From: a virus
Taxonomy: Duplodnaviria > Caudoviricetes
Reading direction: 5' to 3' (one strand)
Virus record (IMG/VR): IMGVR_UViG_3300025654_000007
Location: 6,926-70,925 of that record
DNA: 64,000 nt
Position numbers and translations under genes: made by a program. Below are positions 41,110-45,082 of this stretch, piece by piece. The notes below the pieces were generated by a model. That model did not search any database. It was not told where the DNA came from and was given only the letters and a program-made list of their open reading frames with translations. Within the stretch, counting starts at the first letter, position 1, and each line of letters starts with the position of its first letter.

Positions 41110-41138
41110 GAAGGGTAGCTTCGGCTGCCCTTTCTTTT
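41110..41138 (+). terminator. Rho-independent terminator with C(UUCG)G tetraloop after gp23
   Basis: GAAGGGTAGC-TTCG-GCTGCCCTTT followed by CTTTT. Confidence 0.93.
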
Positions 41139-41152
41139 GCCTCGGATCCGTG

Positions 41153-41160
41153 TATAAATA
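41153..41160 (+). promoter_or_regulatory. Late promoter for gp3
   Basis: TATAAATA downstream of the gp23 terminator. Confidence 0.85.
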
Positions 41161-41685: not shown

Positions 41686-42141
41686 ATGGCAAACCCACTT
41701 GATTTAGAACAGATCTTAGAAATGTGGAAGAGAGATAGTAAGATTGATGAGATGAATTATGATGAAGCTTCTCGAGATTCTGCTAAACTGCATGGAAAAT
41801 ATTTAGAGATCTATACTTTGGCTAAGCTTAGGTATAAGAAGTCTGATAACGAGATGAAGGTTCTGCTTAAAAACAAGTGGCTGCATTATAATGGTAAACT
41901 ATCAAAAGAAGAGATCGATGATCTTGGTTGGCCATATGATCCATTGAATGGTTTATCAGTTCTTAAGGGTGATATGAATCGTATGTACGATGCTGATCCT
42001 CATATTCAAGAACTAGATTCTAAAATGGAGTATCTCAAACTAATTGTCGAGACACTTAAAGAAATTATGGAATCAATAAAGTGGCGGCATCAGAGTATTA
42101 GAAATGCTGTTGACTGGGTTAAATTCACTAGTGGTGCTTAA
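41686..42141 (+). CDS. uvsY: Recombination mediator protein
   Basis: WKRDSKID, LHGKYL, HYNGK, YDADPHI, IKWRHQSIRNAVDW.KF.SG. Confidence 0.93.
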   Translation: MANPLDLEQILEMWKRDSKIDEMNYDEASRDSAKLHGKYLEIYTLAKLRYKKSDNEMKVLLKNKWLHYNGKLSKEEIDDLGWPYDPLNGLSVLKGDMNRMYDADPHIQELDSKMEYLKLIVETLKEIMESIKWRHQSIRNAVDWVKFTSGA

Positions 42142-43649
42142 TGGATAAAATTATTGTAAAGAAAAAGAATCATGTATTCTTAGAAATAGAGACCGACTCC
42201 GGTATCCAGATGGAACTGTCTGAGCATTTTTGTTTCTACGTTGATGGTTACAAATTTATGCCAGCATATCGCAATAAGATGTGGGATGGTAAGATTAGAT
42301 TATTCGATACTAGAGCTAAAACAATATATGCTGGTCTCTTTAAGTATATAAAAGAGTTTGCAGATGTTCGTCAGTACGATCTCGTCGTAGAAGATAACTC
42401 ATTCTATGGTCGTCCAGACACTGAAGAAGTGTTTGATATTGATAACTTATTGAGCGAAATTGCACTAACTGCTCAAGGAACAGTGATAGAACCTAGAGAT
42501 TATCAGCAAGTAGCAGTTACTCATGCTATGGAACAGAAGCAATCTTTGCTATTATCACCAACAGCATCAGGTAAATCATTAATCATTTATCTATGTATGA
42601 GAGAATTCTTAGCTGCAAATGATGGCAATGTGTTATTGATAGTACCTACAACATCTCTTGTAGAACAAATGTACAGTGACTTTGCTGACTATTCGGCAAC
42701 TGACTCAGGATGGAATGTTGAAGATCAATGCTATAAGATATACGGCGGTAAAGATAAATATAATATCAAGAATAGAGTTATTATAAGCACATGGCAGTCT
42801 ATCTACAAAGAAAGAACTCCATGGTTTGAAGACTTTGGTATGGTTATCGGTGATGAAGCCCATAACTTTAAAGCAAAATCTCTTACCTCTATATTGGAAA
42901 AATGTCATAATGCTAAGTATCGCATTGGTACGACTGGTACGTTAGATGGCGCACAGATTAATCAATTAGTACTAGAAGGTTTGTTTGGACCTGTATATAA
43001 GGTAACTACAACTAAGAAATTGATGGATGATCATGCGTTAGCTGATTTAGATATCAGCGTATTGCTTCTTAAGTACGATGATGAGTACTGTAGAGAAGTA
43101 TCAAAAATGAAGTACCAACAAGAGCTGGACTTTATAGTACAATATGAACCGCGTAATCAGTTTATAACAAATTTAGCATTAGATCAAGAAGGCAATACTC
43201 TTATTCTTTTTAATTACGTTGAGAAGCATGGTAAACCATTACATGAAATGCTTAAAACAAAATTAGAAGGTATGAATACTAGGAAGAAAGTGTACTATGT
43301 ATCTGGTGAGACTGACGTAGAGACTAGAGAAGCTATACGAGCAATAACAGAAGAATCAGATGGAGCGATCATAGTTGCCTCGGTAGGCACTTTCTCGACA
43401 GGTATAAATATTCGTAGATTGCATAACATTATATTTGCAAGTCCATCTAAATCTCAAGTTCGTGTTTTACAGAGTATTGGACGTGGTTTACGGAAATCTG
43501 ATGATGGTCGTGATACTCAGGTATTTGATATAGCTGATGATCTACATTGGAAATCGACAAAGAACTATACACTTAAACATGCAGGGAAACGCATTCAGAT
43601 ATATACTACGGAACAGTTCAAATATAAGATTTTTGAGATTAAAATATGA
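42141..43649 (+). CDS. uvsW: SF2 RNA-DNA/DNA helicase
   Basis: YKFMPAYRNKMWDGKIRLF, PRDYQ, SPTASGKS, DEAH, STGINI, LQSIGRGLR. Confidence 0.97.
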   Translation: MDKIIVKKKNHVFLEIETDSGIQMELSEHFCFYVDGYKFMPAYRNKMWDGKIRLFDTRAKTIYAGLFKYIKEFADVRQYDLVVEDNSFYGRPDTEEVFDIDNLLSEIALTAQGTVIEPRDYQQVAVTHAMEQKQSLLLSPTASGKSLIIYLCMREFLAANDGNVLLIVPTTSLVEQMYSDFADYSATDSGWNVEDQCYKIYGGKDKYNIKNRVIISTWQSIYKERTPWFEDFGMVIGDEAHNFKAKSLTSILEKCHNAKYRIGTTGTLDGAQINQLVLEGLFGPVYKVTTTKKLMDDHALADLDISVLLLKYDDEYCREVSKMKYQQELDFIVQYEPRNQFITNLALDQEGNTLILFNYVEKHGKPLHEMLKTKLEGMNTRKKVYYVSGETDVETREAIRAITEESDGAIIVASVGTFSTGINIRRLHNIIFASPSKSQVRVLQSIGRGLRKSDDGRDTQVFDIADDLHWKSTKNYTLKHAGKRIQIYTTEQFKYKIFEIKI

Positions 43650-44005
43650 ACGAAGTAGATATTAGACATTTTAAGCTGATTAGCTGTGAAGAGATCATAT
43701 GTCACGTAGTAAGTGATAACGATGGCAATTATATGATTGAAAGACCATACACTTTAATACCTAAAATGAACGCAGAGAACGAGTTAGAGTATTCATTAGA
43801 AGAATGGTTTGGATTTGGTAGTGGTAAGCTTTTTACGATACCAAGAGAATCAGTAATTTGTCACTGTGAAGTTGACGAGAACGTTAAGAATACTTACTTA
43901 GGATACTCTGTAGAATATGGTAAACATAAGAGTACATTAGTAAATAATAGTCGTACAGAGTATGATGCTTTAAGTACGTGCTCAGCTAACGATACGGTGC
44001 ATTGA
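43646..44005 (+). CDS. Conserved hypothetical protein after uvsW (Sm-like beta fold likely)
   Basis: FKLISCEEIIC start, typical of the gene between uvsW and gp55 in marine T4-like phages. Confidence 0.7.
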   Translation: MNEVDIRHFKLISCEEIICHVVSDNDGNYMIERPYTLIPKMNAENELEYSLEEWFGFGSGKLFTIPRESVICHCEVDENVKNTYLGYSVEYGKHKSTLVNNSRTEYDALSTCSANDTVH

Positions 44006-44224
44006 TAAATAATATTGTCGCTGCATAACATATGATACTACAGTAACCTATACTCTTGCAGCTACGCTGCAATACAGCTATGCTGTATGTACTGATATAT
44101 GTAACTACTGTATCCGGTATTACATCCATCTACCACCACCATTCCCTCCTTCAAGATAAAGCATGATAGGTTCAATACTAACTGATCATGGACATAATCA
44201 ATCAGTATTAAGATCAAGAAATCT

Positions 44225-44254
44225 ATTATAACATAGTTACCCTCCTTTGTAAAC
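44225..44254 (-). promoter_or_regulatory. Minus-strand sigma70-type early promoter
   Basis: Reverse complement reads GTTTACA-aaggagggtaactatgt(17)-TATAAT with extended -10 TGn and A-rich UP element. Confidence 0.85.
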
Positions 44255-44361
44255 GTTTATTTTCACTTATTTTCATTAACTTTATGTAATACTAACAATC
44301 ATTACACCGAAAACGCAAAACGGCTATCGGTCAAATTAATTCACCACATTTCACTCTTTTT

Positions 44362-44391
44362 GTTTACATTTCCGTACCAGTATGATATAAT
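44362..44391 (+). promoter_or_regulatory. Early promoter for gp55
   Basis: GTTTACA-N17-TATAAT with TGn. Confidence 0.9.
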
Positions 44392-44425: not shown

Positions 44426-45082
44426 ATGGGCGATAAACTTAAACCACGTGAAAAACCACATTACGTCAACAACAGAGATTTCTCTTATGCTGTTGTAGAT
44501 TACGTAGCTTCAATGAATGATGCGATATCAAAAGGTGAAGAAGCCCCAGTCGTAACTCGATACATTGCTGAATGTTTTCTTAAGATCTCTAATGGTCTAT
44601 CACATAAGCCAAACTTTATACGATACACTTACAAAGAAGAAATGGTTATGGATGGTGTTGAAAACTGTCTAAAGGCTATTGGTAACTACAATATAGAAGC
44701 AGCTACTCGTACAGGTAAGCCTAATGCATTTGCTTACTTTACTCAGATATGCTATTTCGCGTTTATTCGTCGAATCACTAAAGAGAAGAAGCAGTCTGAT
44801 CTAAAGTGGGAATATATTGATCAAGTCGGCATTGACAAGTTTATTGAATATAGTGAAATGGGTGAAGATATGGATAATGACACCCAAGCATATATCGATA
44901 TTCTGAAAGAAAGAATTAGTGCAATACGAGCAAATGATACAATCATTAAAGACTATGCAGATTCTAAGAAGGGTAAGCCACCAGCTAAGAAGATGCGTTT
45001 AGAAGAGTTTATGAGTTTTGACGATTTTGATAACTTAGATGACTTAGATGAATCTGAGGATTTTGGACTTAAACGAGACTAA
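44426..45082 (+). CDS. gp55: Late transcription sigma factor
   Basis: HYVNNRDF, YIAECFLKISNGLSHKPNF..Y.Y.EEMVMDG.ENC, NAFAYFTQICY.AF.RRI. Confidence 0.97.
   Translation: MGDKLKPREKPHYVNNRDFSYAVVDYVASMNDAISKGEEAPVVTRYIAECFLKISNGLSHKPNFIRYTYKEEMVMDGVENCLKAIGNYNIEAATRTGKPNAFAYFTQICYFAFIRRITKEKKQSDLKWEYIDQVGIDKFIEYSEMGEDMDNDTQAYIDILKERISAIRANDTIIKDYADSKKGKPPAKKMRLEEFMSFDDFDNLDDLDESEDFGLKRD

Follow-up and report, generated by a model that had tools for sequence, protein, structure and literature searches.

A host-type early promoter lies backward at the 3' end of the late uvsW-o119 unit in about 150 of about 160 related marine T4-like loci, and in the lineage of the phage studied here it would direct transcription through a 213-nt leader that, judged from its sequence, is non-coding and under purifying selection. 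We tentatively favour the reading, at a probability of roughly 0.4, that this promoter makes an early non-coding antisense RNA which would control the late uvsW-o119 unit. New here are the anchoring of the promoter to o119, the clade-wide single-copy leader with its G cluster, and the purifying selection on the long, apparently non-coding leader of one lineage; a literature search found no published description of the backward promoter.

The backward promoter and the late/early module boundary

The window (the whole 64,000-nt stretch of DNA that was analysed) comes from a 70.9-kb IMG/VR viral record, judged 39% complete, of a marine T4-like myovirus whose gp55 shares 56% identity with its counterpart in phage C48C1 and 46% with the one in Pelagibacter phage HTVC008M. 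On the plus strand, the gene order is gp23, a gp3-like gene, uvsY, uvsW, o119, a 420-nt gap, gp55, gp47 and gp46 (Table 1). All 19 matches to the late-promoter motif TATAAATA in a scan of the window are on the plus strand, 18 of them to the left of 43.5 kb, and those at 41153, 41648 and 43403 serve the gp3-like gene, uvsY, uvsW and o119. By this pattern uvsW appears to be a late gene in the window phage, as it is in T4. The early promoters of the window, by contrast, all lie to the right of 44.3 kb. With late promoters on the left and early promoters on the right, the gap between o119 and gp55 is therefore the boundary between the late and early modules. A canonical GC-rich hairpin with a T run stands directly 3' of gp23 (41110-41133), followed by the TATAAATA late promoter at 41153; the phage therefore uses ordinary terminators where they are needed, and none is present between o119 and gp55.

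The small gene o119, which encodes 119 aa, always follows uvsW with a 4-nt overlap, and its product has a conserved C-terminal His (in the window and in homologues in L003-L205). Its PHROG match is labelled 'methylamine utilization', as is S-PM2p116, and it may be the counterpart of T4 uvsW.1. In one population variant (L175, 453-2004), uvsW was called as two ORFs of 249 and 263 aa, for which a frameshift or an assembly error is possible.

The strict early pattern GTTTAC-N15-TGNTATAAT occurs seven times in the window (zero expected), six times on the plus strand and once on the minus strand, at 44254-44225. A reading of the same DNA from its letters alone (hereafter the sequence-only reading) had claimed both this single minus-strand early promoter among plus-strand ones and a late/early module boundary beside it, and the two scans bear it out on each count. 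A looser pattern, TTTAC-N16-18-TATAAT, matches nine times on the plus strand and twice on the minus strand; the second minus-strand match (2329-2302) has neither the TG nor the upstream element and looks spurious. The copy at 44254-44225 combines GTTTACA, a 17-bp spacing between the hexamers, TGnTATAAT, and an upstream AATAA-NN-G element that it shares with nine plus-strand promoters. It thus reads as a full member of the early (sigma-70 type) promoter class of this phage, and it is probably a working early promoter for the host sigma-70 RNA polymerase. It is divergent from the gp55 promoter, at a distance of 108 nt, and is directed into the 219 nt that precede the o119 stop codon.

The tandem A-rich units just upstream of the -35 element could be an UP element or iteron-like. 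Their number varies, with two copies in the window, one in L167-type population variants (through an 11-nt deletion) and three in a more distant relative (L099). Another population variant (L171) carries a natural 40-nt deletion, equivalent to 44254-44293, which removes the region upstream of the backward -35 element together with part of the spacer between the two promoters and leaves both core promoters in place. AAGGAGG occurs twice in the 128 kb formed by both strands of the window, in both cases on the minus strand and within the gap: at 44151, where it heads the G-rich run described below, and at 44247, within the promoter spacer. The 8-mer AAGGAGGG is likewise found at 44238-44247, in the promoter spacer, and at 44144-44151, 96 nt apart, and nowhere else in the window; the same 11-mer (the AAGGAGGG region with TAA added) stands just ahead of the o119 stop codon in a relative (L009; noted for L009/L095).

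Table 1 Features at the o119-gp55 junction of the window, with positions counted from its first letter
Feature	Position	Strand	Basis and remarks
uvsW helicase, late gene (by sequence)	42141..43649	+	Pfam UvsW_N/DEAD/ResIII on identical proteins
o119, conserved small gene following uvsW, first putative antisense target	43646..44005	+	PHROG 527/471; syntenic in relatives
47-codon ORF, second frame, disfavoured peptide candidate	43986..44129	-	called by no gene caller
Linker, less constrained	44021..44054	-	7 of 9 window-versus-L197 differences within 43994-44153; mostly unpaired in the consensus fold
Twin abutting triloop hairpins, CAGC-N3-GCTG core	44056..44087	-	stems invariant; only two substitutions (L203), both in triloops
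26-codon ORF behind AAGGAGG, disfavoured peptide candidate	44062..44142	-	Shine-Dalgarno sequence 2 nt from ATG, not conserved as such
16-nt segment	44097..44113 (approximate ends)	-	present in window and L197 lineages, absent in L203/L204
Purine/G-rich run (G-run)	44126..44152	-	15 G and 0 C in 27 nt
5'-proximal hairpin, 18 bp, 4 G-U pairs	44172..44211	-	present in 5 of 6 sequences
Predicted transcription start zone (about 44218)	44215..44221	-	inferred, 7 +/- 3 nt after the -10 element
Extended -10 element TGTTATAAT	44225..44233	-	11 of 12 consensus matches, TG present; conserved in variants and lineages
Promoter spacer with first of two AAGGAGGG copies	44234..44247	-	purine-to-purine substitutions only, in variants
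-35 element GTTTACA	44248..44254	-	pattern match; unchanged among population variants and across lineages whose o119 is 60-85% identical (aa)
UP-like element, two tandem A-rich units of 10-11 nt just upstream of -35	44256..44276	-	one unit deleted in L167-type variants; three copies in L099
gp55 early promoter, divergent partner of the backward promoter	44362..44391	+	pattern match, upstream element
gp55	44426-45082	+	gene list of the window

Anchoring of the promoter and the G-cluster block in relatives

Relatives were taken from 160 loci with gp55 at 58-69% identity, IMG/VR loci being collected first and metagenome loci added to them. The backward promoter was found in 65 of the 79 IMG/VR loci and, once the metagenome loci had been added, in 146 of 157; in most of the apparent absences the promoter lies further upstream, immediately behind the o119-family gene. 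C48C1, HTVC008M, S-PM2 and Syn9 carry it as well, Syn9, S-PM2 and HTVC008M being cultured relatives, and the element spans the clade down to gp55 identities of about 40%. The outcomes that the sequence-only reading had named as counting against it included a promoter that is not conserved and an ordinary gene at this site in relatives; the promoter proved widely conserved, and no ordinary minus-strand gene was found at the site in the relatives examined. A distant-mode DNA search of the region against named phages gave no matches, and a metagenome scan with o119 peptides found nothing, close relatives being obtained by exact-protein look-up instead.

In several types of locus (L029, L036, L076 and L154), 0.4-2 kb of inserted genes precede gp55, and the promoter nevertheless stays at o119. 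It is therefore anchored to the 3' end of uvsW-o119 and not to the gp55 promoter. The same insertions rule out a supercoiling coupling with the gp55 promoter, since they separate the two promoters while the backward one keeps to o119.

Where o119 could be recognised (105 loci), no more than 50 nt separate the -10 element from its stop codon in 103 cases, and the usual leader of about 35 nt would be followed by transcription straight into o119 in antisense. This short leader carries a block made up of a G cluster and then a motif with GGTATAC at its end. The block is single copy, occurring once per locus and once per genome record of 40-113 kb, and it is found at a fixed distance from the minus-strand -10 element in about 140 loci; where 50 extra nucleotides are present (L099), it stays beside the promoter and not beside the stop codon. 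G makes up 31.8% of the first 35 transcribed nucleotides in relatives as against 16% for the gp55 promoter, and a GGG run follows the backward promoter in 66 of 72 unique sequences as against 0 of 72 for the gp55 promoter. RNAalifold returned no consensus structure for the relatives' block, and an NNCC/GGNN hairpin seen by eye was not supported. The idea of a Shine-Dalgarno-like stabiliser was weakened, as S-PM2, Syn9 and C48C1 have plain G runs without GGAG. A number of loci have the backward promoter without the G cluster (L084, which is HTVC008M, and the group of L030, L034, L037, L041, L043, L125, L133 and L143); at the HTVC008M transcript start, CCTCC within a palindrome takes the place of the G cluster.

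The 213-nt leader of the window's lineage

In the small lineage to which the window belongs, the usual short leader is replaced by one of 213 nt with a 5' hairpin, a G-run and twin hairpins. The G-rich, structured tract put forward by the sequence-only reading is present in the window, with the G-run exactly at the stated place and with real hairpins, but it is special to this lineage and not general. Relatives from the same lineage were obtained through exact-protein look-ups of o119 and form three sets: population variants at about 98% nucleotide identity (L167-L180), a lineage with o119 85% identical (L197-L202), and two lineages with o119 67% (L204) and 60% (L203) identical. All three sets have a gap of 352-420 nt with the same tract. 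Nucleotide identity of the tract to the window is 0.915 for L197 and, for L203/L204, 0.81-0.82 when a 16-nt indel is counted as mismatch or about 0.89 when the indel is set aside; the minus-strand promoter stands at 0.93. The corresponding values are 0.71-0.73 for the o119 gene (against L203/L204), 0.78-0.83 for the gp55 gene, 0.58-0.67 for the rest of the gap and 0.69-0.70 for the 4-fold degenerate sites of uvsW. The tract thus evolves about three times more slowly than neutral sites and is therefore functional, and the leader is under purifying selection.

No other 27-mer of the 64 kb, whichever the strand, combines 15 or more G with a complete lack of C, which makes the G-run the most extreme G-rich, C-free 27-mer of the window. 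From 44145 to 44121 it is invariant across lineages, and its Shine-Dalgarno-like 5' part varies only between G and A. An Rfam scan gave chance-level matches only, none of them in the tract, and a tRNA/tmRNA scan of the window found none. A profile of 30 relatives' blocks run with nhmmer did not match the window tract even at an E-value of 100, and local alignments of the tract with the relatives' block were no better than those of shuffled sequences, save for a weak 11-mer match to L009. Only one other lineage has a long tract in this position, with 135 nt from the promoter to the o119 stop codon (L053, 3037-3201); that tract holds many GTAC-containing repeats and has no sequence relationship to the one in the window.

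The 5' hairpin of the window has a folding energy of -18.4 kcal/mol as minus-strand RNA versus -5.7 as plus-strand RNA; in other lineages the values are -14 to -16 versus -10 to -12. A consensus fold is predicted to pair the G-run with a U-rich stretch around the o119 stop codon (44000-44030) and so to close a 145-nt domain. Two-sided compensatory change was seen at 1 of 66 predicted pairs, the sequences being too alike, and with a single compensatory pair the fold is therefore a proposal and not a result. For the whole tract, the folding z-score is only -2.2 and is equal on both strands. A stringent scan found no terminator-like site between the predicted start and o119 (and only two plus-strand sites in the whole window), and a stringent scan of 88 loci found, with one exception, no intrinsic terminator within 1.2 kb on the minus strand, which is weak evidence. 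The RNA would thus extend in antisense into o119 and uvsW.

The leader was also considered as an mRNA for a small protein. The sequence-only reading had noted no sizeable ORF and had offered a 26-codon minus-strand ORF as an alternative; that ORF exists, but a longer one of 47 codons had been missed. Translation of either, or of a fused 65-aa ORF in L203/L204, seems very improbable to us, even though a perfect AAGGAGG precedes an ATG, one minus-strand frame is open for at least 40 codons in all lineages, and the 16-nt indel joins two ORFs into a single 65-codon ORF in L203/L204, in whose frame both L203 loop substitutions are synonymous. The Shine-Dalgarno sequence lies 2 nt from the ATG, as opposed to short ones at 6-9 nt for real genes here, and in relatives it degrades to AAGAAGG or GAAGAGG through purine-to-purine changes only. 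Indels of 1 nt and 16 nt shift the start and the frame, so that 26 and 47 codons in the window correspond to 33 and 47 in L197 and to the fused 65 in L203/L204; because its length is not a multiple of three, the 16-nt segment shifts every reading frame. Differences from L197 in the 47-codon frame are distributed 6/2/1 over codon positions 1/2/3, compared with 8/5/48 in uvsW. No Pfam or PHROG match was obtained, the three ORF products are absent from a collection of 15 billion proteins, no gene was called in the gap on any contig, and in the roughly 150 distant relatives no ORF of any kind would fit. A small-protein gene would be marked by a conserved start, frame and ribosome site and by third-position substitutions, and these were not found; the 26-aa peptide is disfavoured in particular, with its frame broken by indels, its Shine-Dalgarno sequence not conserved and no family match. 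A further 51-aa ORF with a TTG start was rejected, as natural L167-type variants have a stop codon in it. By this evidence the leader appears to be non-coding, as is the case for cis-encoded antisense RNAs.

Readings of the transcript and comparison with known systems

In the antisense reading that we prefer, the RNA would start near 44218 and run leftward with its 213-nt leader, including the long-range helix of the G-run with the U-rich stretch, and without a recognisable terminator it would read on through o119 and uvsW in antisense. Acting in cis at the late/early boundary, this RNA and the polymerases that converge there would hold down or delay uvsW-o119 expression, through pairing with the sense RNA and through transcriptional interference. 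They would also separate the early from the late transcription units, and the control would fade once the early promoters lose to gp55-directed late transcription. Like a cis-antisense RNA, the predicted transcript has its promoter on the strand opposite to its target and, to the extent inferred, overlaps it, the promoter being 219 nt from the o119 stop codon in the window and about 35 nt from it in relatives. Convergence of an early transcript on a late unit also accounts for why the promoter is so strictly tied to the 3' end of uvsW-o119. Three points speak against the antisense reading. A pure antisense RNA needs no conserved leader outside its target gene; the G cluster after the promoter in most relatives is left unexplained; and, with late promoters silent early, there may be little sense RNA to oppose.

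The antisense reading and one in which the transcript primes replication are not mutually exclusive. The backward promoter and the G-rich start of its transcript would then be the primary R-loop origin of a very large marine T4-like clade (cyanophages, pelagiphage relatives and uncultured lineages), corresponding in position to T4 oriF and shut off by late uvsW transcription, an explanation that we regard as rather unlikely but as the main rival. The early transcript would stay hybridised to the C-rich template via its G-rich segment, be processed and prime the leftward leading strand, until late uvsW expression and late read-through remove the R-loop and replication switches to the recombination-dependent mode; the 213-nt leader of the window would be a lineage-specific elaboration of the primer RNA. 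The primer promoter of T4 oriF likewise fires towards the 3' end of uvsW, and oriF and oriG are each built from a promoter and a downstream element, with UvsW unwinding the R-loops that their transcripts form (PMC3016281). The G enrichment at the start of the relatives' transcripts compared with the gp55 promoter, the single copy of the block per genome, its fixed distance to the -10 element and not to the stop codon (L099) and the rank of the window's G-run as the top outlier of 64 kb all fit an origin. So does the predicted RNA, which has no coding ORF and no terminator. Untranslated antisense RNAs are prone to R-loops in E. coli (PMC5909445). Origin promoters of the T4 type are active before the late period, a property that the backward promoter has by its sequence class.

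Other observations disfavour the origin. Cumulative GC skew passes the junction without an inflection in five genomes (the window, C48C1, HTVC008M, Syn9 and S-PM2), which is weak evidence because gene orientation dominates the skew in these genomes. Beside the promoter, an A+T-rich unwinding element is missing from most relatives, whose transcripts would reach o119 within some 35 nt. In the window itself the initial 70 nt are slightly richer in A+T (28-32% GC versus 34-36% locally, a small difference) and form a hairpin. Past the leader, C is abundant and G scarce in the RNA (plus-strand skew of +0.2 to +0.6), which disfavours extension of an R-loop, and the window's G-run lies 67-93 nt from the start, behind the 18-bp hairpin, where it is predicted to pair. 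A G cluster is, moreover, absent from HTVC008M and the L030 group. Of the earlier proposal of a transcription-primed origin or an antisense RNA, the selected and apparently non-coding tract and the conserved promoter have held up, whereas the GC-skew check that came with it left the origin unsupported in five genomes.

Since the transcribed leader is under selection, the RNA or its DNA hybrid would matter, and not the mere act of transcription. It remains to weigh a role of the conserved element on the plus strand or as DNA, with the minus-strand promoter secondary: the C-rich 3' end of the late uvsW-o119 transcript could be a Rho loading site or a stability element, or the DNA could be a protein-binding boundary. 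The plus-strand copy of the G-run is indeed C-rich, G-free and similar to a Rho loading site, the stretch from o119 to gp55 is free of intrinsic terminators, and there are palindromes both in the relatives' block (GTATAC and CCGG) and in the window (CAGC-N3-GCTG). We nonetheless judge such a role improbable, given that the block keeps its distance from the minus-strand -10 element in about 140 loci and follows the promoter in L099, that the 5' hairpin is much weaker as plus-strand RNA, and that S-PM2 and Syn9 keep the arrangement although their hosts are cyanobacteria, which are not known to have Rho. Masking of the gp55 ribosome site by the C-rich plus-strand RNA was rejected for the window, where gp55 has no GGAG-type site.

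In the sea, the T4-like phages that infect cyanobacteria, SAR11 and other marine bacteria rank with the most abundant viruses, and they do without the T4 middle-mode system. A single-copy non-coding element at one syntenic spot throughout the clade is a candidate for control of the start of replication or of the early-late switch.

The classical 'anti-late' RNA of T4 is a phage RNA that lies opposite to genes and is made from a host-type promoter, as would be the case for the antisense RNA that we favour. The CfrI RNA of the T4-like cyanophage S-PM2 (PMC2984593) is comparable in that a host-type promoter drives a non-coding RNA opposite phage genes. With a length of about 225 nt, CfrI is a discrete species; it lies across from psbA and a homing endonuclease gene and is expressed together with both (PMC2984593). 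The RNA predicted for the window differs from CfrI in its target, which is uvsW-o119, in showing no evident terminator, and in having a conserved leader outside the target.

The plasmid ColE1 with its RNA II, and the mitochondrial light-strand promoter with conserved sequence block II, are transcript-primed origins of the G-rich kind. They resemble the present element in having a promoter followed by a conserved, transcribed G-rich block, in single copy and with no ORF; they differ from it in that the G clusters here are short (GGGG plus GG runs) and the hybrid is a candidate only. Among the T4 origins, oriF (uvsY) and oriG (Kreuzer and Brister 2010, PMC3016281) share with the backward promoter a position adjoining uvsW, firing towards its 3' end, a promoter active before the late period and a transcript proposed to act in cis. 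The T4 origin promoter is MotA-dependent, of the middle class, and its transcript is also the uvsY mRNA, whereas the promoter described here is of the early sigma-70 type and serves no gene. Downstream of the promoter, T4 has an A+T-rich unwinding element as the defining part, in place of which the relatives have the G cluster and the window has its structured 213-nt leader. The T4 origins are known origins, while the one considered here is a candidate drawn from sequence, on which GC skew is silent. In T4 and, by its promoters, in the window phage uvsW is a late gene, and its product removes R-loops.
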